Source of the DNA: Spirochaetota bacterium
Lineage (GTDB): Bacteria; Spirochaetota; UBA4802; UBA5550
Reading direction: 5' to 3'
NCBI GenBank assembly: GCA_017999915.1
Contig: JAGNKX010000001.1
Span: 691,440 to 755,439 of the forward strand
DNA: 64,000 nt
Positions within the stretch are counted from its first letter, which is position 1; every line of letters starts with the position of its first letter. The notes below the pieces were generated by a model. The model was not told the DNA's origin, searched no databases, and worked only from the letters and a program-made list of their open reading frames with translations. Both the position numbers and the translations under genes were made by a program. Shown piece by piece: positions 2 through 61,928 of the stretch.

Positions 2-3000
2 TACGCTGATAATAACGGCATAGCGGTGCTGCGGCTCCATGCCGGCAACTATCCCTATGACAGGGAGATCACCTGCGAGGCCACGGTGGTGGACCGCTCC
101 AATGTCAGCATCAGCTCCAGCAACAAGGTGCGGGTGGGTCGCGGGGAATACTACATCAAGATCGAGCCTTCCCAGCATTTCTTCTCCAGCGGCGAGAAGA
201 AGCCGGTCATTATCAGGACCCTCACCCATACCGGCAGGCCCCACGGCGCCAAGGTCAAGGTGGAGCTCTTCCGCTACATCTGGAAGCCGTGGGAGAGGGT
301 TTATGTCCATGATGCGAAACCACTTTTCTCTGAACAGGTTTCAACTGACAGCCAGGGCATTGCCACGGTGAACCTCCCGAAGGAGTTCAGCTTCTACGGC
401 GAATTCGACCTTGTGGTCAACGGTGTTGACCGGAAGGATAATGTCATAACCGCGTCCCGGGTCATATGGATCTACAGCCTTGAAGGGGCCAGGGTGGCGT
501 CGCGGTTCAAAAACCTGGAGCTGTCCGTCAACGCCACGGAGCTGGCCAAACCGGGAGAGATCACCTGCCTCATAAAGAGCTGCTTCACCGATGCCTATGT
601 GTGCGTCACCCTTGAGGGAAGGGATGTATATGAGTCGAAGGTGATCAAGATGACCGGCAACATCATGCCGGTGCAGTTCACCATAAAAACGGAATACGCG
701 CCGAACCTTTTTGTCACGGCTACGATGCAGAGAAAGAGGGCCCTGTACACCTCCTCGGCGGGGATTTCACTGCCGGTCCATGATACGGCCCTCGCTATCT
801 CCATCGAGCCTGACAAGCAGAAATACTTGCCTGGAGAGAAGGCTTCTGTGCTACTAAAGGCTGTGGATGGCAATGGCAAGCCGGCAAGGGCCGACCTCTC
901 CCTGGCTGCGGTGGACGAGGCGATATTCCAGGTCAGGTATGACCACACGCCCCTCATGAGGGACTACTTCTATACCAAAATATCCAACTGGGTCCTCACC
1001 AGCTATTCCTATCCCATAACCATGCTGGCCGGCGCAGCAAAGGACGGCAAGGTAAAGGTGCGGGAAAAGTTCGAGGACACGGCATTCTGGTCAGCGAAGA
1101 TCAGGACCGGGGAGGATGGCACTGCCCGGGTGAATTTTACCTTACCGGACAACCTGACGACCTGGCGCCTCACGGTCCGTGGCCACGACCAAGCCGGCAG
1201 GATGGGCGAGAAGAAGACCACCTTCCTGGTCACCCAGGATCTGATAGCGCGCATTGGAAAGCCGCGATTTATGGTGGAGGGGGACACCCTGAGCCTCATC
1301 GGCATCGTCAATAGCAATACTGAGCGGGGCCTAAAAAAGGTCGATACTATATTCAAGGCCGATGACAGGGTCCTTGAGGCGGACGAAGCAGTTACTATCA
1401 GTCTCCCGGCCTTCGGGTCCGCCAGAACCTATTATCCATACAAGGTGCCGAAAGACAGGAAAGAGGTAACGCTCCAGTACTCCGCCCGGTCGATCGGGGA
1501 CGCCAGGGACGCGCTGAAATTGACCGTCCCGGTGGAGCGGCGCGGCACGCCCTTCAAGCTCTACGGCATCGGCGACATGGCCGTTAATAGAACGGTCACG
1601 GTAACGCCTCTTGCCGAGACCGATGACTTCAGCTTCGTGCCTGAATCGGTGACCGTGTCCCTCAGCCCGTCCCCCATCATACAGATGCTCAGGGCGACGA
1701 AATACCTGAGCGAGTATCCCTACGGGTGCATCGAGCAGACCCTGAACAGCTTCATCCCGAACCTGGCGCTGAACCGGATGCTCAAGCAGAAGGGATACGG
1801 CCGGTTCATTAACGAAAAGGCGAAGAAAAAGCTCGATGACAAGGTGAGCGCCGGCATCGACCGGATCCAGCGGTACCAGAATGATGACGGCACCTGGGGA
1901 TGGTGGTCCGGGAGCCGCGGCAACGCCTTTGTTACCGGCTATGTGCTCTACTCCCTGCGGCTTGCCCAGGAGGCGGGATTCACCGTCGATAAACCGGTCG
2001 TCACCAGGGGGCTCACGGCGGTGCAGCGCTATTTTTCCAATCCGAAGCTGGAGGAGTGGGACGCCGTTGCGTACCTGATGTATATCAACGCCCTCTGGGG
2101 CAGATGGGACCATGAAATTTTCAAGAAGATCATCAAGGTCAAGGACCCGGGCACATACCGGACCGCATGCCTGGTGAAGGCCCTGGCACTGGCGCGGGCC
2201 CATCCAAAATTGACCGATGACATGAGGAGCGAAATAAACGCCATGGCGCCGCGCCTGGTTGATCTCCTCCTGCAATCGGCCAGGAAGGACGGCTGCGGCA
2301 TCTACTGGGAGAGCCGGGGCAATGACCGCTGGAGCTGGCCCGGAGGCGACACCGAGATCACCGCCCATGTCCTCTCAGCCCTGATCGGCGCCGGGGACCG
2401 TTCGACGGTGCCGGCGCAGATCGTCCGCTCCCTGTGCAGCCGCTCACGGGGGGATGCGTGGAATTCCACCAAGGAAACAGCAACGGTCATGATTGCCCTG
2501 TGCGGATACCTTGAGGCCATGGGAGGCCCTGCCGTGACCAGGGGCGCCGTGAGGTTTTCCCTGGACGGCAAAAAAATAGCTGACATTTCCTACGATCTTG
2601 AGGATCCGAAGGTGATGGAAAATCTGACCCGCAAGATCCAGTTGGAAGGAGGAAATGCCCGAAACTCCTTCACTGTGACCGCCGAAGGGGAAGCGGGATC
2701 GGATGTGAGCTTTGACGTAGTCATAGGCGGCACCCTGTATTTCAAGGACAAGGGTGCCCTGTCCCTGATACGGTCCGAGGAGCGGGGCATCAGGTCCCTT
2801 TCAAACGGCATCTCCATCACCAGGACCTTCGCGTCCATTACGAGGGTGCGCGATTCGCGCAACAATGAATACATGGTGCCCCAGAGCCTGGCGGGCAAGA
2901 AGGTCATCCAGATCGGGGACGAACTCCTGGTGAAGGTGAAATTCCAGGCCCAGGACGACTTTCAATACCTGGTGCTGGAGGACTATCTTCCCTCGGGTTT

Positions 3001-3244
3001 CGAGGTGACGAAGAACAACGCCTATGATGAGTACACGCCCTTTGTCCATATCGAACGGTGGGACAACAGGATGGTTTATTTCTTTACGGATTTGAAAAAG
3101 AATGAGATCTACGAAGTGGCGTATATCGTCAGGGCCGAGCTGCCAGGAAATTTCATGGTGAAGCCGTCCCGGATGGAATGCATGTACGAGCCGTCCATCC
3201 AGGGATGGTCGGCACCGGTTGTGGTTGATGTGGAGAAGAAATAG
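2..3244 (+). CDS. Alpha-2-macroglobulin family protein, C-terminal about 1072 aa. The reading frame is open to the window edge and the N-terminus lies upstream of the window.
   Basis: Long ORF open from position 2. Canonical thioester motif GCIEQ (YPYGCIEQTLNSF). Size and domain order are consistent with bacterial A2M (YfhM-like). Confidence 0.85.
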   Translation, partial: YADNNGIAVLRLHAGNYPYDREITCEATVVDRSNVSISSSNKVRVGRGEYYIKIEPSQHFFSSGEKKPVIIRTLTHTGRPHGAKVKVELFRYIWKPWERVYVHDAKPLFSEQVSTDSQGIATVNLPKEFSFYGEFDLVVNGVDRKDNVITASRVIWIYSLEGARVASRFKNLELSVNATELAKPGEITCLIKSCFTDAYVCVTLEGRDVYESKVIKMTGNIMPVQFTIKTEYAPNLFVTATMQRKRALYTSSAGISLPVHDTALAISIEPDKQKYLPGEKASVLLKAVDGNGKPARADLSLAAVDEAIFQVRYDHTPLMRDYFYTKISNWVLTSYSYPITMLAGAAKDGKVKVREKFEDTAFWSAKIRTGEDGTARVNFTLPDNLTTWRLTVRGHDQAGRMGEKKTTFLVTQDLIARIGKPRFMVEGDTLSLIGIVNSNTERGLKKVDTIFKADDRVLEADEAVTISLPAFGSARTYYPYKVPKDRKEVTLQYSARSIGDARDALKLTVPVERRGTPFKLYGIGDMAVNRTVTVTPLAETDDFSFVPESVTVSLSPSPIIQMLRATKYLSEYPYGCIEQTLNSFIPNLALNRMLKQKGYGRFINEKAKKKLDDKVSAGIDRIQRYQNDDGTWGWWSGSRGNAFVTGYVLYSLRLAQEAGFTVDKPVVTRGLTAVQRYFSNPKLEEWDAVAYLMYINALWGRWDHEIFKKIIKVKDPGTYRTACLVKALALARAHPKLTDDMRSEINAMAPRLVDLLLQSARKDGCGIYWESRGNDRWSWPGGDTEITAHVLSALIGAGDRSTVPAQIVRSLCSRSRGDAWNSTKETATVMIALCGYLEAMGGPAVTRGAVRFSLDGKKIADISYDLEDPKVMENLTRKIQLEGGNARNSFTVTAEGEAGSDVSFDVVIGGTLYFKDKGALSLIRSEERGIRSLSNGISITRTFASITRVRDSRNNEYMVPQSLAGKKVIQIGDELLVKVKFQAQDDFQYLVLEDYLPSGFEVTKNNAYDEYTPFVHIERWDNRMVYFFTDLKKNEIYEVAYIVRAELPGNFMVKPSRMECMYEPSIQGWSAPVVVDVEKK

Positions 3245-3565: not shown

Positions 3566-5632
3566 ATGAACAAGTGCCCGGCCATATTCCTTTTGCTGTT
3601 TATCATGTTCCCGGTCTATCCGGCAGGAGCGGAAACTGATAATGATAAGCCTGTGACCATACAGATACTATCCAAGCAGGTCAGGCTGTTGAAAAGCGGC
3701 GCCATTAAAAGAATCTCCATTTCGGTAACGCATGGCGCCACGGTAAGGGATGAAAACCATAGGGTGATAGATGGGAAAACCATAAGTTGTTCCGTCACTG
3801 CCGGAATGGTTGGCTTGTTCATAGATGACAGGCCCCTGGCGGGATCCGGAAAACTGGATATCGCACCCGCTCCTGAAAAAGACGACATCGTGATCCATAT
3901 CGACGGAGAGGCGAGAAGGTATCCTCTCCCCCTGTCGGTCCGTTTTGGCGATAACAGCCTGATATTCACTGTACAGGAGAATCTAAACCGGTACGTCGTT
4001 GATTCGTCCCTGGCAGAATACAGCGGCGATTATTGGAAAGAAAGGGAAGGTATCCTCGCCCTGGCCCAGGTGATACGGGCCCGATATCATTTCTCCAAAA
4101 AAAATCCCCGCCACGGCAACGCGGATTTCTGCGACCTCACCCACTGCCAGGTGTACAGGGGCAGGATGAACAGCGCCATTTCTTTCCATGACGACTGGGT
4201 CATCGATCATCAGAAGCTGCGGCACAACCTCTTCTTTCACTCCCGGTGCGGAGGGAGGACCTTCGACCCCGGCGTTTTCAGGGGGAAAGCGATTTCCGCC
4301 GGCAATAACAGCCCTGGCGTAAGGGACTGGCTCTACCGCAAGGGAACCCGGCTTTGTTCCGCCAAGGATTCCCGCTGGGAGCGCACCATAGGCAATGATG
4401 AATTGGCCGGGATACTTTTTCCCGGGAAAGTGAATGATGGCAACGCATCACTGTCGCTTCGATACGACAGGGACATCATGGTGGTTGAGGTCATCACGCC
4501 ATCGGGAAAGACATCTTTCCCGGTTGAGACGTTCAGGCTTAAAATAAACAGGGTCAAGGGATGGAACTTTATCCGCAGTAACAGCTTTACCGTATCAGAG
4601 AAAACGACTGATAACGAGAGGCTTTTCCTTTTCAGGGGAGAGGGACTCGGTCATGGAACTGGCTTATGCCAGCATGGGGCCATGGCCCTTTCCCGGCTCG
4701 GATATAACAGGTACGAAATACTGGAACACTATTTTCCCGATCTTCAGTTTCAAAGCCCGGAAACAGAGGGGGAGTTGTCACCTTATTGCTCGTACTGTCT
4801 TTTTGATGTTTCCACGGGAAAGGTTTTAAAGTCAACTCAGGGCGAGGCCTTTTTGTCGAGAACCGTTCCGCCGGGATCGCTATTTAAGGTCATCGTCGCG
4901 CTGTATCTTGCCGCCGAGCGGCCCGATATATTTTCTGATTACGCCTATCCGTGCACAGGAAGGAATGTGAATGATCCGAACCTTCCCGACCGCTGCTGGA
5001 GGCCCAAAGGCCACGGGACGGTACGGCTCAAGGAGGCCCTGCCCAACTCATGTAACCTCTATTTCAGCTCACTCTATAAAAACATATCTCAAAAAAAATT
5101 CAGGGCATTTTATCAGAATTTCTGCGGGTCCCTGGGTATCAGGCAGCCCCTGCCGGAGACCGCAAACGACAGGCAATGGGCGGAGCTCCTGGCAGGTCTT
5201 GATTTCAGGATGTCATTTACCATTGGCGATTTGATCAAGCTGGCGCGCTACTGTTATTGCGGCAACGGTGAAGTGAGAGATCAATCAGTTCCAGGAATTC
5301 CTGTCCCCTATCAGGAAAGATTGAAGCTATTCCAGGGATTGCGGGATACCTTTGCCCATGGCACGGCTTCCGAACAGAAAAAACGCTCGGGCCCTTCCTG
5401 TAATTATATTTCTCTTGAAAACCCAAGTGAAAAAAAATCCAACATGCCTTTAACTGGTCTCTGGGGAAAAACAGCCACTGTCCTGGATGGCACCAATACG
5501 CCGTTGAGCTATGGCCTATTCATGGGCGGGAACGGCGCCACCGGCGTTATTGTTGTGTTGAGAAAAGGCACGGGCAACATGGCTTCCCGATGGGCGCGGA
5601 AAATCCTCGGCCAGGAAAAAAGAAACGACTGA
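3566..5632 (+). CDS. Secreted fusion protein: SpoIID/LytB (lytic transglycosylase-like) domain plus a C-terminal PBP/beta-lactamase-like transpeptidase domain.
   Basis: Signal peptide present. SpoIID signature residues RHGNADFCDLTHCQVYRG and GEGLGHGTGLCQHGAMALSRLGY. Downstream are SxxK (SLFK), SxN (SCN) and KTG-like (KGTG) motifs. Confidence 0.7.
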   Translation: MNKCPAIFLLLFIMFPVYPAGAETDNDKPVTIQILSKQVRLLKSGAIKRISISVTHGATVRDENHRVIDGKTISCSVTAGMVGLFIDDRPLAGSGKLDIAPAPEKDDIVIHIDGEARRYPLPLSVRFGDNSLIFTVQENLNRYVVDSSLAEYSGDYWKEREGILALAQVIRARYHFSKKNPRHGNADFCDLTHCQVYRGRMNSAISFHDDWVIDHQKLRHNLFFHSRCGGRTFDPGVFRGKAISAGNNSPGVRDWLYRKGTRLCSAKDSRWERTIGNDELAGILFPGKVNDGNASLSLRYDRDIMVVEVITPSGKTSFPVETFRLKINRVKGWNFIRSNSFTVSEKTTDNERLFLFRGEGLGHGTGLCQHGAMALSRLGYNRYEILEHYFPDLQFQSPETEGELSPYCSYCLFDVSTGKVLKSTQGEAFLSRTVPPGSLFKVIVALYLAAERPDIFSDYAYPCTGRNVNDPNLPDRCWRPKGHGTVRLKEALPNSCNLYFSSLYKNISQKKFRAFYQNFCGSLGIRQPLPETANDRQWAELLAGLDFRMSFTIGDLIKLARYCYCGNGEVRDQSVPGIPVPYQERLKLFQGLRDTFAHGTASEQKKRSGPSCNYISLENPSEKKSNMPLTGLWGKTATVLDGTNTPLSYGLFMGGNGATGVIVVLRKGTGNMASRWARKILGQEKRND

Positions 5633-18479: not shown

Positions 18480-21122
18480 ATGGTATCAATGAAACGTATC
18501 GTTGTTGCAATTATTGTCTTGATGTGCTGGACCGCGTCGGAAGGGGCCAAGCCGTACCGGGGTAGAAAGATCAACCTTTTCGGCAATTCGGCTGAGTCCC
18601 TCGCCCGGGCCGGGACGGGTGTGACATCGTCAGGGACCGAGCAGTTTTATCTGAATCCCGCCTCCATCGCCGATTCCGAGCGGATCGGGGCAAGCTTCCA
18701 GTACGGGTCCCTTCCATTGCCCACGAAATACTACGATGGCGGATTTTCCCTGGCCGTACCGACCTCATACGGCGTATTCGGGGGTTTCTTCCGATACATG
18801 AAGTTCCCCGGCAGCGCCATTGATATCAAGGAAGGCTACAGCGTGAGCGTGGGAAGCGCCCGTGACCTGACGAGGCAGCTGATGCTGGGCTTTTCCCTGA
18901 ATTTTGTATACGGGAAGAACGGCGGAAAATCGTTTTACACCGGCGGGAATCTCGGGTTCATTTATAAATTCCCCGGCACGGCAGCGCGCTACGGCTTCTG
19001 TATCCATGACCCGCGGATAGGTTTTTCTGTCAATTTCGGGTATCCCTTTGGCAGCCATCGCAGCTATGCGGATATGAATGCCATCACCCTCGGTTACAGC
19101 TTCAAGTTTTTCCATATCAAGCAGTTCTCGCTTGGATTATATAATGATTTCACGGTGCTCAATTATCGGGACTTCCCTCTTAAATTCGGCATTGAATCGG
19201 AGATCTTCAATATTCTTATCATCAGGGGGGGCTATGTGATCCCCCATGCCTATAACAGCGGAAACTTCACCACAGGATTCGGTCTGAAAATCGATACGGA
19301 GAGTTTCAAGGGCTCCCTGAATTATGCCCTCAACTTTTATCCAAACATGAAGTACACCCATTATATCGGCGTCAATTTTGAATATGGCAAACTGGACCGG
19401 GAACCTCCCGAAACGGAGATCGGGGCGGATAAAAACGATATCTCTCCCAATCATGACGGGTCGAAAGACTACGTCCTGTTCAATCTCAGCGTCTTTGACA
19501 GGAGCAGGATAAAGGGATGGAAGCTCCAGATCATGGATGCCGGATCCCAGATCATCAAGGATTATTCCATATCGGAACGGGACATCAGCGACCGGCTCTC
19601 CGCACAGGAATTTTTTAAAAGGCTTTTTAAAAAGCGTGAATCGATGGTCGTTCCCGAAAGGATTATCTGGGATGGCACCGATGTGAAAGGGAAAACCGTG
19701 CCCGACGGCAGATATGGCTATTCCTTTACGGCATGGGATGAAAAGGACAATATTGCGGCCACGAAATCAGGTTATGTCTATGTTGACAATACTCCACCCG
19801 AGGTTGTCCTGGAAAAAAGCGACGATCTGTTTTCGCCCAATAAGGATGGCAGGAAGGATATCTATACGATTGTGCAGAAAATAAAATCATCGCCCGAGGA
19901 TGAATGGTCTGCCTGTTTTAAAGATTCACAGGGGAATGTGGTCAAGAAATACAGCTGGGCAGGCAATGCCGTGCCGGCCCGTGTCGTATGGGACGGGAAG
20001 ACCGATTCAGGCGATGACGCTCCCGAGGGCCTGTACAGCTATTCCATCTCCTGCGCTGATAATGCCGGCAACAGGGCCCATGCGGACATCAACTCCATCA
20101 CGCTTACCCGTAAATATGAGATCGCCGACATCACCCTGACACCGGAGTATTTTTCTTTCGCCAAAGAGACGCCCTTGAAAATATTCCCGGCCCTGTCAAG
20201 CACGCACGGCCTCGTGGAGTGGAAAATCCTCATACAGAATGCGGGAATGAAGATTATAAAAGAAATCAGCGGGACGAATTCGATCGACAAGATGCTGACC
20301 TATGATTGCACCGACAAGGACGGGGCGCGTCTCAATGACGGCGTGTATTATGTCAGGTTCATCGCCGTGTTCAAGAGCGGCAACACGCCTGAGTCCTTTA
20401 ACAAGATGTTTACCGTGGACAGCACCCCGCCGAAGCTTTCGGTATCTCATTCGCCCTCCCTGTTTTCGCCTGACGGGGACCGTGAAAACGACCTGTTGAA
20501 GATTGAGCCATGGGCGAAAGACAGCACGGGGATTAAAAGCTGGAGGATCATCGTCTATGATTCATCCGGTGAATCCTTCAAGACATTCTCCGGCAACGGC
20601 GCCGTTCCCGGGGAGATTCTCTGGGACGGTCTCGGGGACACCCTGGACATCGTCGAATCAGCCGCTGATTACACCATCGTTCTCGAAGCCACGGACATGG
20701 CCGGGAACAGGGGGGTATCCTCTCCGGACCGTCTGGAAGTGGACGTGCTGGTCCTGGTAACCGAGCGGGGGCTGAAAATAAGAATCAGCAATATCGAATT
20801 TCCCTTCGGCAGCAATGAAATCAAGTACAAGGGAAAGGTGATCCTTGACCGGGTCTTTCAGATACTGCAGAAGTATGAGAGCTATGACGTCCTCATCGAG
20901 GGACATACCGACGACATCGGCAAGGAAGAGTACAACCTCGAGCTCTCGGAGCGAAGGGCAAAAGCGGTGAACGACTATCTTCTGGGAAGGGGTATACCTC
21001 CTGACCGGCTGAAATATGTGGGAATGGGGGAGACGGTGCCGCTCTATCCCAATGACAGCGATGAGCATCGGCGGCGCAACCGCCGTGTTGAATTCATGCT
21101 GATCAAAAGGGTCGCCGAATAA
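18480..21122 (+). CDS. OmpA-family outer membrane protein: N-terminal beta-barrel (PorP/SprF-like FYLNPA motif), tandem FlgD-Ig-like repeats, and a C-terminal OmpA/MotB peptidoglycan-binding domain.
   Basis: Signal peptide. Repeated motifs SPNHDGSKDY, FSPNKDGRKD and FSPDGDREND. C-terminal GHTDDIG...NRRVEF, typical of OmpA_C. Confidence 0.8.
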   Translation: MVSMKRIVVAIIVLMCWTASEGAKPYRGRKINLFGNSAESLARAGTGVTSSGTEQFYLNPASIADSERIGASFQYGSLPLPTKYYDGGFSLAVPTSYGVFGGFFRYMKFPGSAIDIKEGYSVSVGSARDLTRQLMLGFSLNFVYGKNGGKSFYTGGNLGFIYKFPGTAARYGFCIHDPRIGFSVNFGYPFGSHRSYADMNAITLGYSFKFFHIKQFSLGLYNDFTVLNYRDFPLKFGIESEIFNILIIRGGYVIPHAYNSGNFTTGFGLKIDTESFKGSLNYALNFYPNMKYTHYIGVNFEYGKLDREPPETEIGADKNDISPNHDGSKDYVLFNLSVFDRSRIKGWKLQIMDAGSQIIKDYSISERDISDRLSAQEFFKRLFKKRESMVVPERIIWDGTDVKGKTVPDGRYGYSFTAWDEKDNIAATKSGYVYVDNTPPEVVLEKSDDLFSPNKDGRKDIYTIVQKIKSSPEDEWSACFKDSQGNVVKKYSWAGNAVPARVVWDGKTDSGDDAPEGLYSYSISCADNAGNRAHADINSITLTRKYEIADITLTPEYFSFAKETPLKIFPALSSTHGLVEWKILIQNAGMKIIKEISGTNSIDKMLTYDCTDKDGARLNDGVYYVRFIAVFKSGNTPESFNKMFTVDSTPPKLSVSHSPSLFSPDGDRENDLLKIEPWAKDSTGIKSWRIIVYDSSGESFKTFSGNGAVPGEILWDGLGDTLDIVESAADYTIVLEATDMAGNRGVSSPDRLEVDVLVLVTERGLKIRISNIEFPFGSNEIKYKGKVILDRVFQILQKYESYDVLIEGHTDDIGKEEYNLELSERRAKAVNDYLLGRGIPPDRLKYVGMGETVPLYPNDSDEHRRRNRRVEFMLIKRVAE

Positions 21123-48363: not shown

Positions 48364-49851
48364 ATGATCGTTTCGAAGACATCACAGATGGCCTCTGATT
48401 TCGATAAGGGCGAAACCATTGCGCTTTCTTTAAGCTACCATAATAAAGCGGTCATCCGCTTTATCAGCTCGGTCATCACCAAAATTCTGGCCAGGAACAA
48501 CATGGTCTTCCTCCAGGACGCGGTCATTACCATTCTCAGGGAAATAATTGTCAACGCGGTCAAGGCGAATTCGAAGCGTCTCTATTTCAGATTCCAGAAC
48601 CTTGATATGCTTGACGAAGAGGAATACCTGCAGGGGATGGAGGGCTTCAAGTCATTTATCATCGATAACCAGGGTTTCGTCGAAGACGAGCTGAAAAAGA
48701 GCGATTACAAAGTCGTCATCTACCTGAAAAAATTCGAGTCCGGCTTCAGCATCAATGTGCAGAACAACGCGCCGATCCATCCGGAGGAAATGAACAGGAT
48801 AAAAACGCGCCTGCAGAAAGCAAAGTCCTACAACGATTTTTCCGAAGTGTATTGCGACGTGTCCGACGATACGGAAGGCGAGGGTCTCGGGCTGGTCCTC
48901 ACGATCCTGTTCCTGAAAAATACGGGCATAGGGGTCAATTCGCTGCAAATATCCTCAAATGAGCGCATCACCGACACCTCCCTGGTGGTGCCGTTCCAGC
49001 TCAAGCCCGTGACCGTGATAAACAAGATCCAGCAGCAGATCCTAAACGAGGTGCGGGATCTGCCGACCTTTCCGGAGAATATCCTCGAGCTGGAAAAGCT
49101 GTGCACCAACCCTGAAGTCGATTACCGCATCATAGCCGAGAAAATATCGATCGACCCGTCCCTGTCAGTATCGGTGCTAAAGCTTTCGAATTCAGCGGCC
49201 TTCATCACAAGACGGCGCATCGAGACGATCATCGACGCCATAAGCCTGATCGGCATGAAAAATCTCAGGGCCATAATCATAGCGTCGAGCGCCCGCCGTA
49301 TTCTGGACGAGCGCTATTCCTCCTTCCGCCAGGTCTGGGATCACTGCAACAAGACGGCGTTTTACGGCCGGCAGCTTGCCATGACCCTGGGGTACGGGAA
49401 GATCGCGCAGAACATATACCTCGCCTCGCTCCTCCATGACCTGGGGAAGATCGTTCTCCTTTCAACCAGCTCGGCGCTTTCGGAATGGATGTTCACCCTC
49501 GTGCACAACCGGGGCATGAGGACCTCAACGGTCATCGAGGAAGTATCCATCGGGATCAGCCATTCGAGCATAGGGGAGCAGATCGCGAAAAAATGGAACC
49601 TGCCGGATTACCTGGTTGAGGCGATCCAGTGGCACCACGCGCCCTTGAACTGCAAGAGCGAATTTCAGGATATCGTGTACATCACCTATCTCGCTAACAA
49701 GATGTGCAGCATTGAAGAGAAGAAATACGATTATTATTTTCTCGAGGAAGACGTTCTGCAAAAATACAAGCTCGATGACGAGAAGGCCTTCAATGCCCTC
49801 CATGAGCGAATGAAGGTCATGTATAACGACCAGAACGCGCCGAAACGATGA
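48364..49851 (+). CDS. Signalling protein: N-terminal GHKL/HATPase_c-like domain fused to an HDOD domain.
   Basis: N-box-like ILREIIVNAVKAN and G-box-like DTEGEGLGLVL. C-terminal HDOD pattern (…LLHDLGKIVLL…HH…). Confidence 0.65.
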   Translation: MIVSKTSQMASDFDKGETIALSLSYHNKAVIRFISSVITKILARNNMVFLQDAVITILREIIVNAVKANSKRLYFRFQNLDMLDEEEYLQGMEGFKSFIIDNQGFVEDELKKSDYKVVIYLKKFESGFSINVQNNAPIHPEEMNRIKTRLQKAKSYNDFSEVYCDVSDDTEGEGLGLVLTILFLKNTGIGVNSLQISSNERITDTSLVVPFQLKPVTVINKIQQQILNEVRDLPTFPENILELEKLCTNPEVDYRIIAEKISIDPSLSVSVLKLSNSAAFITRRRIETIIDAISLIGMKNLRAIIIASSARRILDERYSSFRQVWDHCNKTAFYGRQLAMTLGYGKIAQNIYLASLLHDLGKIVLLSTSSALSEWMFTLVHNRGMRTSTVIEEVSIGISHSSIGEQIAKKWNLPDYLVEAIQWHHAPLNCKSEFQDIVYITYLANKMCSIEEKKYDYYFLEEDVLQKYKLDDEKAFNALHERMKVMYNDQNAPKR

Positions 49852-56096: not shown

Positions 56097-56729
56097 ATGA
56101 AAAAACTGGAATCGACCAGAAAAATAATCAACGGAAGCGACATCAGGATATACAAAAAGGGCTTCGGGTATTCGAAGATCACCGTTATCGACTCCACCGA
56201 TTATTACCTCGCGGCCATGGCCGACGATGACCTGTATCGCGCCATACGGGAAGGGGACCGGGTGGATTCCTACCTCTGGGTGGAGGACGTGGCGTCCTAT
56301 GAATTCGAACTGGCCTATATCGGGAAGATCACATCGGGCCCGCCGATTATTTTTTTCGGTCATACCGATGCCATCACCAGGAGCCCTGACCGCAAGTGCC
56401 TCACCGCAACGGTAAAGATACCCTTTAAGTTCTTCATGTTCGATCCCGGCGACACCAAAAAGGGGATAACGTCGGAGCATATAGTGTATCATGAGGGGAC
56501 CGTAGTTCTTCTTTCCGACCGTGAAGCGACCATCCAGACAAAAGAGAAAATCGGCGGCTCCAGGTTCCTCAAGGGACAGGTGGCGATTCAGGGCCAGGTC
56601 ATCGAACTGGTGGGAATGGTGGATGAGTTGAATGAATCGAAGGGGATTTACAATGTCCTCTTTGCCGGAATGCATGAAAAAGAGAGAAAAGCGATTCTTG
56701 AATTCATATTTGCGACCTATCGGGAGTAA
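56097..56729 (+). CDS. Hypothetical protein. Whether it is a PilZ-like fold could not be verified.
   Basis: Coding-like composition. I prefer it over the overlapping minus-strand ORF 56013..56792, which has non-protein-like His/Arg-rich composition. Confidence 0.4.
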   Translation: MKKLESTRKIINGSDIRIYKKGFGYSKITVIDSTDYYLAAMADDDLYRAIREGDRVDSYLWVEDVASYEFELAYIGKITSGPPIIFFGHTDAITRSPDRKCLTATVKIPFKFFMFDPGDTKKGITSEHIVYHEGTVVLLSDREATIQTKEKIGGSRFLKGQVAIQGQVIELVGMVDELNESKGIYNVLFAGMHEKERKAILEFIFATYRE

Positions 56730-56909
56730 ATGGCGATGGTCCCAGGCGTCACAAACCGAAGGGCAATGATTTTTGATGATTTCTAGACTCACCCCCCGAT
56801 GATCCTTCTCTGATTATTTTATCATATTTTAGCCAATTTTAATAACAAAAGTCTCGTTTTATACCGAAATTGTTAAATAGATATATCTGTTTATAGCGCC
56901 TTACAGAGG

Positions 56910-57887
56910 ATGCGTCATTTTCCCATGAAAAAAAGAAAAATAGTTCATGCCCTGATTCTGCCAGCGATGATCATGTTTTTTATCGGCCCGGCGCTTTCCG
57001 CCGTGTATGAACCAGACAAGTTCCGCGTTCACCTCAGGATGGACAAAAAAATATATTATGCCGATGAGGATGTGACGCTTCATATCCATGTGAAAAACAT
57101 ATCAGAGAAGAAGAATTATTTCGAGGTGTATGATTCGCTGGAAAATGAATCGTCCAATTATACGACCTTTCAGCCCCTTGTCTTCGACATGAAGGGCCGG
57201 GAAGCCGAGATAACCGTTCCCTACAGGATTGAGAAGAGAGACCTTGCCGATATCGTCAGGGGCCTTGAAAAGCGCATGGTGGAGCTTGCTCCGGGGGAAT
57301 CCTTCGTCCATACCGTAAACCTCAAAGACCTGTTCACCGTAAATCTCAATACAACCTACCGTGTTCAGAGCCTGTTCTATCCCGCCTTTGAGGAAAACAG
57401 TATCATTAAAAGCGACAATGAACTCTCTTTTAAGATCGTGGAACAAAAAAGGTTGAACAAGCCCAGCGAGGTTGATTCGATCGAGCGGGGCATTTCACCT
57501 AAAGAAGTAATTTTGTTGACACTGAAGGCTGAAAAAGATAGGGATTGGGACAACTGGATCAAGTTCATTAATGTTGAAAAATATATCAACGCCTTCCCGG
57601 AATTTGTACAGAAGTATATCCGGGCCAACTATGAGGAAAAGTCTCAAATAGAAAAAGATTTTATAAAATATGTCACCAGGAACAGGGACGATTACCTGAT
57701 AAATTACAGAATCGTGCGAGAGGCAGTTGAAAAGGAACGGAAAACTGCCTATGTTGATGTCATAGAGGAGCGGTTCGGAATCCGGTGGACCTACCGGTAC
57801 AAATACCGGTTCACGCTGGAGCAATACAAAAACCTGTGGCTGATAACCGATGAAGAGGCCACGGTTATGAAGGGTGCCAGAAAATGA
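56910..57887 (+). CDS. Hypothetical secreted protein, translationally coupled to fliM.
   Basis: Signal peptide. 325 aa. Its stop overlaps the fliM start (ATGA). Confidence 0.55.
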   Translation: MRHFPMKKRKIVHALILPAMIMFFIGPALSAVYEPDKFRVHLRMDKKIYYADEDVTLHIHVKNISEKKNYFEVYDSLENESSNYTTFQPLVFDMKGREAEITVPYRIEKRDLADIVRGLEKRMVELAPGESFVHTVNLKDLFTVNLNTTYRVQSLFYPAFEENSIIKSDNELSFKIVEQKRLNKPSEVDSIERGISPKEVILLTLKAEKDRDWDNWIKFINVEKYINAFPEFVQKYIRANYEEKSQIEKDFIKYVTRNRDDYLINYRIVREAVEKERKTAYVDVIEERFGIRWTYRYKYRFTLEQYKNLWLITDEEATVMKGARK

Positions 57888-58909
57888 CCGAAATCCTATC
57901 ACAAGATGAAATTGATGCCCTATTGACCGCAATTTCAACGGGCGAGGTGGACACCACTGACTATTCTGCAGCCAAGGAGCAGAAGAAGGTCAAGATATAC
58001 GATTTCCGCCGCCCGGACAAGTTCTCGAAAGACCACATCCGCACCCTCCAGATGATGCATGAAACCTTTGCCCGGTTGACCACGACGGCCCTTTCGGCCC
58101 AGCTCCGGGCCCTGGTGGGGGTTCACGTGGCCTCTGTCGACCAGCTTACCTACGAGGAATTCATACGGTCGATCCCAAACCCCACGACCCTGGCCGTCAT
58201 CAACATGGATCCCCTGAAGGGTTCGGCGGTCCTTGAGATCGACCCGTCCATCACCTTTACGATCATAGACAAGCTCTTCGGCGGCATGGGAGAAGCCACG
58301 AAGATCAGCCGGGAGCTCACCGATATCGAGCTTTCGGTCATGGAAGGCATCATTGTCCGCATCCTGGGGAATCTCCGGGAGGCATGGTCGAACGTTATCG
58401 ACCTCCGGCCGCGGCTCGGCAATATCGAGACGAACCCGCAATTCGCCCAGATCGTCCCTCCCAACGACATGGTCGTTCTCATCACCCTGGAAACCAAGGT
58501 CGGCGAGGTGGAAGGGATGACGAACCTCTGTATTCCCTACATCTCCATCGAGCCGGTGATCTCGAAGCTGTCGGCGCAGTACATGTATTCCAGCATCAGG
58601 AAGGGCGCCACGGACGAAAACCTTTCGGTCATCCAGAAACGGCTCGAAACCGTCATCCTTCCCGTGGTGGCCGAGCTCGGCGAGGTTCAGGTCGCCGTGC
58701 AGGAAGTGCTCCGCCTGAGCGTCGGCGACGTCATCAAGCTGCCGGACACCAAGGTCGGGTCCGACATGACCCTGAAGATCGGCGGCCGCAAGAAGTTCAA
58801 GTGCCGGCCCGGCGTGGTGTCAAGCCGCATGGCGATCAAGATCGGCGAGCGCATAGAGGAAGTGCCGGATGAACTGCTGATTTCGAAGAGAAGCGACGAT
58901 GATTTTTAA
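57884..58909 (+). CDS. fliM: Flagellar motor switch protein FliM.
   Basis: N-terminal CheY-P binding motif LSQDEIDALL. 341 aa. Middle domain and C-terminal FliN-like SpoA domain pattern. Confidence 0.8.
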   Translation: MTEILSQDEIDALLTAISTGEVDTTDYSAAKEQKKVKIYDFRRPDKFSKDHIRTLQMMHETFARLTTTALSAQLRALVGVHVASVDQLTYEEFIRSIPNPTTLAVINMDPLKGSAVLEIDPSITFTIIDKLFGGMGEATKISRELTDIELSVMEGIIVRILGNLREAWSNVIDLRPRLGNIETNPQFAQIVPPNDMVVLITLETKVGEVEGMTNLCIPYISIEPVISKLSAQYMYSSIRKGATDENLSVIQKRLETVILPVVAELGEVQVAVQEVLRLSVGDVIKLPDTKVGSDMTLKIGGRKKFKCRPGVVSSRMAIKIGERIEEVPDELLISKRSDDDF

Positions 58910-59040
58910 TTAATTTGAACTGTGCCATGTCACACACAAGGCCCATGGAGCACCATGGGCCTTGTTGCCTATTCAACTTCCCGGCGCAAACACTTTCCTC
59001 TGTCATTGCATTGTTTAAACCGATTGTGCAACCGCTGATC

Positions 59041-59631
59041 CTATGTCAATGCCCGAAGGATACGGTCAGGCAGGTCTTTTTCCGCCCTTGCGATATCGAC
59101 AGCGGGATCACCGTCCAGCCAGCGCCGCGCCGTTTCTGCAGCCGGACCGATGATGATCATTTCGTACATGAATTCAGGGAGCTTTACAAATTGCCCCGTA
59201 TCGGCCAGGGAATGGATTGCGGCTGCGATTGTTATCATGGATAAATTTCTTGCGGCTGCGATTTCGTCGGCATACTGGCGGACATAAGGCTGGAACGTGG
59301 ACGCATGGATAAATCTTGCCTCGTCCGGATTCTTTCTTGTCCATGATAGATACGCCTTCACCAGGGACCGGATGACCAATTCCGGGGTATTTTGCCGTTG
59401 GACCGCCTTGGCGATGGTTTTGAGCAGGCCTGAGAGGGACCGTATATAGAGAGCCGCGGCAACGCCGTTCATGCATCCATAATGATGGTAGATGGATCCG
59501 GCAGTGGCTCCGGAACGTTCGCTCAGGTCCACCACGGGGATGCGGGTCGTGCCTGTTTCGCGGAAGATATCCATGGCGGTATCCAGGATTTTTGCCGCGG
59601 TTTCGTTTCCCCGTTCCTGTTTCCAGCCCAT
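59041..59631 (-). CDS. TetR/AcrR family transcriptional regulator.
   Basis: N-terminal HTH AAKILDTAMDIFRETGTTRIPVVDLSERSGATAGSIYHHY. Confidence 0.8.
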   Translation of the reverse strand: MGWKQERGNETAAKILDTAMDIFRETGTTRIPVVDLSERSGATAGSIYHHYGCMNGVAAALYIRSLSGLLKTIAKAVQRQNTPELVIRSLVKAYLSWTRKNPDEARFIHASTFQPYVRQYADEIAAARNLSMITIAAAIHSLADTGQFVKLPEFMYEMIIIGPAAETARRWLDGDPAVDIARAEKDLPDRILRALT

Positions 59632-59634
59632 CGG

Positions 59635-60462
59635 TTATCTGCCGAATCCAAGTTTCATGGCCTGTTCCCGGAGTCCTTCATTGAAAGCGCCATCGAGGGC
59701 GATGGGCGCAAGATCCTTTTCCCTGAATCGATCAAAATATTTGCCGGTGACCCCGCTGAATTTCGCATTGTCCGCCAGCCTTAACGGCGCCCTGGCGCCT
59801 TCCTCGGGTGTAAGCTGCAGCAGTTTTGCGCAGCGCAAGAACAAGCCCAGGGCCCCGCCGGTGTCTCCCAGGCCGGTCCGTACAACGCCGGGATGGACCG
59901 CGTTAAAGGTTACGCCCTTCCCCTCCCAGAGCCGGGCGAATTGCATCGTGCATATCAGATTAAAGAGTTTTGTCGTGGCATAGGTTCTCAAAATGCTGAA
60001 GTTTGTGCCGGCGGCGGCAGCCTCGTAGTCCTTCATGCCGATCAGATAAAGCCCGGCGGAAACCTGGACCAGCCTGCAGCGGTTCGCGGTGAACAGATCC
60101 TCCAGGAGGATGTTTATGATAAAAGGTCCCAGGTGATTGGTGACAAAGGACTGTTCCAGGCCATCTTCGTTGAATTCCAGTTTCAGGGGCCACATACCGG
60201 CATTGTGGATGAATACCGATAGGTTTGGGCACTCTCTTTTAATCCGTTCCGCGGCATCCCTGGCGCCGGCTATTGAACCCAGATCACCCGCGATCCATTC
60301 GATGGATCCAATTCTCCTGGCAGCGGCTTCCTCGATAAAGGTCCGAGCACGCTCGCCGCTGCGGCACATAATTTTGACATGGTAGCCTCTTTCAGCCATT
60401 GCCAAGGCAATGGCCGCTCCTATCCCCCTGTTCCCGCCGGTCACCACCGCCACTCCTTTCAT
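59635..60462 (-). CDS. SDR-family short-chain dehydrogenase/reductase.
   Basis: TGGNRGIG cofactor motif. I place the start at 60462 (MKGVAVVTGG) after GGAGGGG. The ORF-track start at 60486 falls inside the operator palindrome. Confidence 0.85.
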   Translation of the reverse strand: MKGVAVVTGGNRGIGAAIALAMAERGYHVKIMCRSGERARTFIEEAAARRIGSIEWIAGDLGSIAGARDAAERIKRECPNLSVFIHNAGMWPLKLEFNEDGLEQSFVTNHLGPFIINILLEDLFTANRCRLVQVSAGLYLIGMKDYEAAAAGTNFSILRTYATTKLFNLICTMQFARLWEGKGVTFNAVHPGVVRTGLGDTGGALGLFLRCAKLLQLTPEEGARAPLRLADNAKFSGVTGKYFDRFREKDLAPIALDGAFNEGLREQAMKLGFGR

Positions 60463-60473
60463 GGCCCCTCCGT

Positions 60474-60507
60474 AATTAGAAAACATTATTAGAAATATTT
60501 TCTAATT
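60474..60507. promoter_or_regulatory. Inverted repeat AATTAGAAAA-N14-TTTTCTAATT upstream of the SDR-TetR operon: candidate TetR operator.
   Basis: Perfect 10-bp arms read from the sequence, with a third half-site (TTAGAAA) in the spacer. Confidence 0.4.
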
Positions 60508-60884: not shown

Positions 60885-61928
60885 TTACTGCCGTGATATC
60901 TTGTTCAGGTACGGCATGGGATCGACGAATTCGGTGCCGATGATGATCTCATAGTGGCAGATATAGCGCGCCGTCTTTCCGGTGCGTCCCACGTAGCCGA
61001 TGACCTCTCCCTTGGCGACCTGCTGGTCCGGCTCTACCGATACCCGCTGGCAGTGGGAGTAGGCGGTGGTAAAACCGTATTTATGCTTCACTGAGACAAC
61101 AAGCCCAAGGATCGGGTCCCAGCGGATTTCGCTTATCTTGCCCGGTGCCGTGGCCCGTATCTCTGAACCAGGGAATGCTTCGATATCGATCCCATTATGG
61201 TGCTCACTTTCGGCGGCGTTAACGGAATTGCGCTGTCCGAAACGGGAGATGATATAGCCGTTGACCGGCCATATTGACGGGGTGGTTTCGATTATTTTTT
61301 TTCGGTATTCCAGGAATACTTTTATTTTAGAAAGGACCTTCTTGGTCGTTTTCAGCTCCCGCTCGATTTCCTGGATGTTCAGGATCTCGATGGGCGGGGC
61401 GGTCACGCTGGTGTTTCCATTTTCGCCGCCATCACCGCTTTCAAAGGCCGGCGGGTCCGGATTGGGGACACCGCCCTTGGCCCATAATGAATCAATGTCG
61501 CTGCCGGGAGTAAGCGAATACAGGTGGGTGATTTCCGGCTTGAATTTCTGGAAGATGTCATAGAGTTCGTTGATCTCTTCCTTGTATTTTTTTATCTGGA
61601 TCTTCGAATTGGAGCCGTATTTTTTCAGCTTGGAGACTTCCTTGATGGTCGACGAGTGATTGATGATCAACACGGACGTCACCGTGACCGTCGCCGTCAC
61701 CGCTCCGGCTATAATGGCGATGGCGAATATGGATACGTGGAAGTTAATAATTCTCTTTTCGGAGTGGGGGATGAACATTATGGTGATGCGCTCATTTCCC
61801 TTGGTGACAAAGCGCTTCCACCAGTCTTTTAGCATCGCCTGTTTGGAGCTCAAATGGTCTGAGAGGAACTGCAGAATATTCTTCTGCAAATCATTCAGAT
61901 TTGTTTCTTTAAAAGGATTCAGGTTCAT
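60885..61928 (-). CDS. M23-family metallopeptidase (LytM domain) with an N-terminal TM/coiled-coil region.
   Basis: HNGIDI...(H)xH pattern: HHNGIDIEAFPGSEIRATAPG and ...HCQRV...GRTGKTARYICHYEI. Confidence 0.85.
   Translation of the reverse strand: MNLNPFKETNLNDLQKNILQFLSDHLSSKQAMLKDWWKRFVTKGNERITIMFIPHSEKRIINFHVSIFAIAIIAGAVTATVTVTSVLIINHSSTIKEVSKLKKYGSNSKIQIKKYKEEINELYDIFQKFKPEITHLYSLTPGSDIDSLWAKGGVPNPDPPAFESGDGGENGNTSVTAPPIEILNIQEIERELKTTKKVLSKIKVFLEYRKKIIETTPSIWPVNGYIISRFGQRNSVNAAESEHHNGIDIEAFPGSEIRATAPGKISEIRWDPILGLVVSVKHKYGFTTAYSHCQRVSVEPDQQVAKGEVIGYVGRTGKTARYICHYEIIIGTEFVDPMPYLNKISRQ

Follow-up and report, generated by a model that had tools for sequence, protein, structure and literature searches.

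The 64,000-nucleotide stretch of Spirochaetota DNA considered here (positions 691,440 to 755,439 of contig JAGNKX010000001.1, assembly GCA_017999915.1; hereafter the window) contains a gene for the flagellar switch protein FliM and, directly ahead of it, a gene, here called h320, for a predicted exported protein of 320 amino acids (aa). The corresponding open reading frames (ORFs), 56910..57887 (+) and 57884..58909 (+), are both present in the window, whose GC content is about 52%. The features of the gene pair, in window coordinates, are the following.

56843-56870 (+): sigma-28 (FliA)-type promoter-like element, composed of TAAC (56843-56846), a 16-nt spacer and ACCGAAAT (56863-56870).
56925-57887 (+): h320, gene for a 320-aa protein predicted to be exported, family unnamed; first gene of the putative operon, with an alternative start at 56910.
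56925-57002 (+): predicted signal peptide or signal anchor of the h320 product (MKKRKIVHALILPAMIMFFIGPALSA), read from the sequence and seen as an N-terminal helix (residues 2-24) in the structural model.
57012-57440 (+): Ig/FN3/arrestin-like beta-sandwich domain, residues 30-172 in the AlphaFold2 model.
57498-57866 (+): NTF2-like alpha+beta cone domain, residues 192-314 in the AlphaFold2 model.
57870-57887 (+): translational-coupling junction, with a Shine-Dalgarno (SD)-like AAGGGTG (57870-57876) within the final h320 codons, then ATGA (57884-57887).
57884-58909 (+): fliM, flagellar C-ring switch protein of 341 aa, identified by Pfam, TIGR01397 and sequence.
58936-58965: 13-bp GC-rich hairpin in the gap where fliM and the TetR gene converge, from RNA folding.

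The product of the second gene has the make-up of a normal FliM. It scores 381.4 bits against the equivalog model TIGR01397 (cut-off 219.6), with residues 3-325 of 341 covered. Its middle domain matches the full PF02154 profile (7e-82, residues 39-229), and its FliN-like (SpoA) C-terminus, the integrity of which an earlier note on this DNA had proposed to check, is intact by PF01052 (6.4e-20, residues 253-324, profile positions 2-72 of 73). The N-terminus reads MTEILSQDEIDALL, and the peptide that binds phosphorylated CheY (CheY-P), LSQDEIDALL, is kept at residues 5-14 (nt 57896-57925), as that note had recognised; the motif is identical in relatives. The GGXG motif, which has a role in FliG binding, is present as GGMG (residues 133-136). 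In a scan with one genome per species, FliM was found to be 85-99% identical across 80 loci, all from uncultured Spirochaetota labelled Leptospirales, Leptospiraceae or Leptospira, so that the window can be assigned to a Leptospira-like spirochete. Three metagenomic contigs on record carry an identical FliM and share the local gene order. Within the clade of the window, the ratio of nonsynonymous to synonymous substitution rates (dN/dS) of fliM is 0.005-0.015, corresponding to extreme purifying selection. A decayed FliM can be rejected, all modules being intact and dN/dS being about 0.01.

The association of fliM with h320 is conserved. The upstream protein had been described as unrelated to fliM; genomically this was wrong, since tblastn searches place an h320 homologue (33-100% identical) directly upstream of fliM and on the same strand in each of the 79 loci that hold upstream sequence. 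When the neighbouring ORFs of 79 genome loci were clustered, h320 (75 loci under the stricter clustering) and the gene of a convergent M23 peptidase (66 loci) were the only ones seen to accompany fliM, all remaining neighbours being variable. The reverse test, starting from h320 homologues, gave fliM as the next gene in 7/7 members with a profile E<=1e-30. Six of these overlap fliM or lie within 17 nt of it, and one has an extra ORF of 270 aa in between (L085:4960-5772). This ORF, which has no Pfam match, overlaps the end of h320 and precedes fliM; it represents the only non-adjacent case seen. The h320 gene is itself under purifying selection (dN/dS of 0.07-0.10).

At the junction of the window (57880-57889, gaaaATGAcc), the fliM ATG (57884-57886) overlaps the h320 TGA (57885-57887), so that the overlap of a secreted-protein gene with the fliM start, announced in the earlier note, is borne out. 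The AAGGGTG preceding it is encoded by the nearly invariant Lys316-Gly317 of h320, and in 86 of 90 loci an SD-like 4-mer precedes the start of fliM, at -16..-4. In about 80 loci, the distance from the h320 stop to the fliM start ranges from -8 to +7 nt, the ATGA overlap being the commonest arrangement; among relatives the junction has been remodelled into several forms (-8, -4, -1, +2, +3 and +7 nt, once with an inserted ORF). At the other end of h320, the true start is probably ATG 56925 (MKKRK..., 320 aa) and not 56910, because the earlier ATG is out of frame in a close relative (L001) and because gene calls on record give 320 aa.

Transcription signals can be proposed on both sides of the pair. 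Upstream of 56910, where the earlier note had suggested looking for promoter motifs, a sigma-28-like element is present and conserved at 56843-56870, with an imperfect -10 element. This block is invariant in seven close relatives, while the rest of the 180-nt upstream spacer diverges. The pattern TAA[CGT]-N15-17-NNCGATA[AT], searched 40-130 nt upstream of h320, occurs in 30 of 77 loci as compared with 3% of random 321-nt windows. More distant relatives show near-consensus sigma-28 elements at the same position, for instance TAAC-N16-GTCGATAA and TAAG-N16-TCCGATAA. A sigma-70 consensus scan of the + strand of 56730-56909 gave nothing convincing, and a sigma-70 promoter was rejected, the conserved block having no -35 for such a reading. 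The block is read here as a putative FliA-type promoter, from which transcription would start near 56878, about 8 nt downstream; expression of the pair may then depend on FliA. Downstream, the hairpin at 58936-58965 is calculated at -44.1 kcal/mol (z = -3.6), none of 200 shuffled sequences being as stable. It has a weak U-tract and a consensus scan made no call there; it is probably the terminator of the operon.

The h320 protein has no Pfam or NCBIfam match. Its 65-76 homologues, all unnamed or annotated "hypothetical protein", come from metagenome-assembled genomes of Spirochaetota, and a profile search of 1.84 billion representatives returned 354 cluster representatives at E<=1e-3. Most of the family members listed are full-length, with about 300-350 aa, and some are shorter fragments. 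The family appears to be uncharacterised in the searchable literature. The N-terminus of h320 comprises a basic n-region, a hydrophobic core of 15 residues and the sequence PALSA|VYEP, here judged by eye to be a signal peptide or signal anchor. Basic-plus-hydrophobic N-termini are likewise found in the h320 homologues of about 80 loci. From its positive-inside N-terminus, and from the signal-peptide-like N-termini found across the family, the protein is predicted to be periplasmic, either soluble or N-terminally anchored.

The AlphaFold2 model of h320 has a mean predicted local distance difference test score (pLDDT) of 82.8 and a predicted template modelling score (pTM) of 0.49, the latter reflecting a disordered linker. 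After the N-terminal helix (2-24) comes the beta-sandwich (30-172) and, beyond a linker (176-186), the alpha+beta cone (192-314). For the N-terminal domain, fold similarity was seen to arrestin, the AsaP1 propeptide, BsuPI and the FN3-like domain of GH3 enzymes. The modelled C-terminal domain, in which about three helices pack against a long, curved antiparallel sheet, is of NTF2-like type, and MlaC-like and ketosteroid-isomerase-like chains are among the fold matches. Residues E203, K213, Y231, D256, Y257, R283 and W305, all in this part of the chain, are invariant. The NTF2-like periplasmic scaffolds of secretion machines, such as the VirB8-like TraM (4ec6) and TcpC (3ub1), show 8-13% identity to h320. 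This is a resemblance of fold only, since dozens of NTF2-like enzymes and binders unrelated to them are as close to h320. No sequence or fold similarity was detected with the solved periplasmic flagellar proteins of Leptospira and other spirochetes (FlaA, FlaB, FcpA, FcpB, FlaAP and collar parts). The idea of h320 as a known flagellar sheath or collar protein was rejected for want of any sequence or fold match in the PDB.

The position of h320 raises the question of a relationship with FliL. In other spirochetes, as well as in E. coli and B. subtilis, fliL stands directly before fliM, and the earlier note had foreseen that the upstream ORF might turn out to be FliL-like. It is not: PF03748 gives no match to h320 at E<=0.01 and none at E<=1 in 35 family members, NCBIfam gives no match either, and the model does not have the periplasmic SPFH/stomatin-like fold of FliL. 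A FliL-like h320 is therefore rejected by sequence (Pfam, NCBIfam) as well as by fold. What h320 shares with FliL is a gene directly upstream of fliM and a single N-terminal hydrophobic helix, and position and topology alone are insufficient for membership. The same comparison holds for the fliL-fliM(-fliN/Y) arrangement that most flagellated bacteria have, Borrelia and Treponema among them, where the co-expressed upstream gene likewise encodes an N-terminal hydrophobic helix and a periplasmic body; h320, however, is twice as long and, in the window, no fliN or fliY follows fliM. One may still imagine that a single-pass membrane h320 fills the classical fliL slot and performs a FliL-like job around the stators with another fold. 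The gene position and the predicted topology (short basic N-terminus, one hydrophobic helix, periplasmic body) would agree with such a function, but Leptospira has a canonical fliL elsewhere (PMC10100824) and we regard this stand-in as improbable.

In the window, fliM is the only flagellar gene. All ORFs of 180 aa or more, together with those in the intergenic gaps, were scanned against Pfam, and no other flagellar or chemotaxis gene was found, in agreement with the earlier note. The gene content is made of efflux, lipid-oxidation, cell-wall and housekeeping genes, and a tRNA/tmRNA scan of the window returned no genes. The sole flagellar look-alike is an OmpA-family protein of 880 aa (18480-21122, +), the Ig-like domains of which match FlgD_ig and CHU_C and correspond to a generic immunoglobulin (Ig) domain. 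Two explanations had been offered for this isolation, a scattered flagellar regulon or a repurposed switch protein; the former stands and the latter does not. In L. interrogans, the flagellar genes are distributed over about eight operons, with one sigma-28 (PMC5243855, PMC12655853), and fliG (LIC10023, LIC11393, LIC11900), motA (LIC12931, LIC10622) and fliL (LA_3575) all lie far from fliM (PMC11800159, PMC10100824). Dispersed flagellar genes have been documented as the rule in Leptospira (PMC5243855, PMC11800159), and a fliM standing by itself is nothing unusual for a Leptospira-like lineage. A FliM that left the flagellum and now works with the secreted protein in some other system, in an organism devoid of flagella, would draw its sole support from the lack of other flagellar genes within 64 kb. 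Such a fate is hardly credible for a full-length, equivalog-level FliM with all three modules and the GGXG motif, 78-99% identity to the FliM of Leptospira-type genomes and a dN/dS of about 0.01, the more so as flagellin or fliG genes adjoin the same pair in relatives.

These neighbouring genes deserve mention. A flaB gene is found in the neighbourhood of the pair in 15 genome loci, and next to it in L087 as well. Such flaB genes (L079:5312-6169, L080:12628-13485, L087:7632-8975 and some 12 further loci) follow fliM at a distance of 1.5-3 kb and are sometimes in tandem. In one locus (L092), fliG (937-1935) is divergent and upstream of the pair, and a YcgR-like gene stands beside it in some relatives. 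Some lineages have thus kept remnants of a flagellar neighbourhood that was larger. Altogether, it is rather probable that the locus corresponds to the normal, single fliM of a flagellated Leptospirales-type spirochete with dispersed flagellar genes, and that this fliM is the second cistron of a two-gene operon in which the first cistron encodes an exported accessory protein of the periplasmic flagellum. The analysis covered 64 kb of the source genome.

The following scheme can be proposed for the expression of the pair. The putative sigma-28-type promoter at 56843-56870 would drive the synthesis of one mRNA ending at the hairpin 58936-58965. Ribosomes would finish h320 at the TGA contained in ATGA and restart on the ATG of fliM, aided by the SD-like AAGGG of the last Lys-Gly codons, such that the outputs of h320 and FliM would be coupled. 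The h320 product, composed of an Ig-like beta-sandwich, a flexible linker and an NTF2-like domain, would be exported through the Sec pathway and might then act in the periplasm, at the flagellar basal body or close to it. In this scheme, h320 would serve the periplasmic flagellum as a lineage-specific accessory protein, the most plausible roles being those of a scaffold of the basal-body, collar or stator region, or of an assembly factor.

A flagellar role of h320 is argued for by three aspects of its gene context: the pair was never separated though its junction was rebuilt several ways, a promoter-like element of flagellar type precedes it, and a flaB, fliG or YcgR-like gene adjoins it in some relatives. 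On these grounds, we give such a role an even chance or slightly better. The more precise proposal, that h320 is an unrecognised, Leptospirales-specific component or assembly factor of the periplasmic endoflagellar motor, made in step with the C-ring protein and founding a new flagellar family with a beta-sandwich and an NTF2-like domain, is more tentative and falls a little short of even. Several observations weigh against a flagellar role. Gene context is the only tie of h320 to flagella. FliM being cytoplasmic and h320 predicted to be periplasmic, the two would not be direct partners. There is no flagellar protein among the fold matches of h320, and comparison of its profile with PDB sequences gave matches at chance level only. 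As for the promoter, the -10 element of the window, ACCGAAAT, departs from the GCCGATAA of the sigma-28 consensus (TAAA, about 15 nt, GCCGATAA), the same sigma-28-like motif was not found upstream of the neighbouring flaB genes, and the published predictions of sigma-28 sites in L. interrogans omit fliM (PMC5243855). Finally, three distant members of the h320 family (profile E 1e-17 to 1e-24) are not beside fliM. By sequence, the fliM-linked proteins can thus be placed as one orthologous branch of a somewhat wider family, and the fold would not be intrinsically flagellar, because these distant members lie away from fliM. The distant members (L089:4001-4963, L090:732-1694; contigs of P0199 and P0215) have about 22% identity, a GC-rich host, and bacA, ftsK or a pterin-binding gene as neighbours.

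The main rival to a flagellar role is that h320 is a passenger frozen into the operon. The periplasmic protein would have a non-flagellar job, for instance the binding of small molecules or lipids, or an action on the cell envelope, through its NTF2-like pocket. It would stay by fliM because the ribosome-binding site and the start of fliM are embedded in the 3' end of h320, so that separation is selected against. The SD sequence embedded in the end of h320 and the overlapping frames agree with this view, as do the lack of similarity of h320 to any flagellar protein, the MlaC-like and ketosteroid-isomerase-like chains among its fold matches and the existence of distant family members that do without fliM, beside bacA, ftsK or a pterin-binding gene. 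NTF2-like domains are, moreover, typically ligand-binding or enzymatic. On the other hand, the pairing is kept in 79/79 species-level genomes in which other synteny is lost, and an upstream promoter-like element of the flagellar sigma-28 type is present. Moreover, a junction rebuilt at spacings of -8 to +7 nt, and once around an inserted ORF, without the genes ever being separated, argues for selection on co-expression over mere entanglement. We consider a frozen passenger to be unlikely but not negligible, and less probable than a protein with a flagellar role.

Among known systems, one close parallel is offered by the spirochete-specific collar proteins of Borrelia. FlbB and FlcA-FlcE decorate the periplasmic side of the motor and were found via flagellar gene context, without informative homology. 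Like h320, they are lineage-restricted, fast-evolving and exported or membrane-anchored. They differ from it in being typically TPR or small transmembrane proteins, whereas h320 combines a beta-sandwich with an NTF2-like domain. For at least one collar protein of Borrelia, no ortholog is known in the Leptospiraceae, and the motors of Leptospira display periplasmic structures with an incompletely known protein make-up. An uncharacterised protein, predicted to be exported, with a reading frame that overlaps or nearly abuts that of fliM in every Leptospirales-type genome studied, Leptospira-like ones among them, and with a fold matching no known flagellar part, can reasonably be put forward as a candidate motor-associated protein of a new kind. 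Motility counts among the virulence determinants of leptospirosis.

The link with Leptospira itself can be made through a Leptospira-like contig (L084), on which the start of fliM matches the published forward primer for L. interrogans. The FliM encoded there is 78% identical to that of the window. The contig carries an h320 homologue and fliM with an ATGA overlap, and hhalign matches the upstream protein over its whole length to the family profile (probability 99.8%, 26% identity). The identification of this contig as L. interrogans was rejected, since the reverse primer (PMC4820103) is absent within three mismatches; it is only a Leptospira-like contig. By way of this contig (78%), the fliM locus of L. 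interrogans (LIC11836 / LA_2081) encodes the same FliM protein as the window. LIC11836 (= LA_2081) is needed for endoflagellar assembly, cell shape, motility and virulence (PMC4820103). No mention of its neighbours LIC11835, LIC11837, LA_2080 and LA_2082 was found in the searchable literature. The arrangement around fliM is already implicit in the literature on L. interrogans, and the window adds a member from an uncultured relative. As compared with the L. interrogans locus, the window has a higher GC content (about 52%), its h320 is only about 26% identical to the counterpart on L084, and a pair of genes for a TetR-family regulator and a short-chain dehydrogenase is inserted between fliM and the M23 gene.

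This pair of genes (59041-60486, -) occupies the same position in one other contig (L003), and tblastn searches showed it to be absent there from all other loci compared; it is a local insertion. Beyond it, the window encodes an M23/LytM-domain membrane protein (60885-61928, -), convergent with fliM in 66/79 loci and usually within 100-200 nt. By eye, its HxxxD motif is present (HNGID), and its HxH motif is degenerate and variable (YICHYE in the window, HICFYQ in L080). This degeneracy and variability among relatives suggest a non-catalytic LytM factor, and a link of this protein to the insertion of the flagellum through the peptidoglycan is a speculation.

On the other side, a protein of 210 aa (56097-56729, +) is encoded 180 nt ahead of the fliM operon, in the same orientation and in a position kept in about 15 relatives. 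An RxxxR (R95, R99) is invariant in it, and a DxSxxG motif is absent. Weak PilZ matches were obtained for 5/14 members of its family (best E 0.024) and YcgR-N/PilZNR matches for 3/14 (best E 0.0013), and a single-sequence structure model was uninformative (pLDDT 34.6). It is possibly a divergent YcgR-like cyclic di-GMP brake beside the switch gene. Further upstream, an HDOD/HD-domain protein (48364-49851, +), with an N-terminal region of ~230 aa without family match, is kept 6-10 kb from fliM in the closest relatives only; HDOD proteins are linked to motility signalling in other bacteria. At the far end of the window, the gene of a bacterial alpha-2-macroglobulin (26-3244, +; A2M, TED and MG10 domains) precedes that of a penicillin-binding protein (3566-5632, +), an association resembling the A2M-PBP1c pairing of other Gram-negative bacteria.

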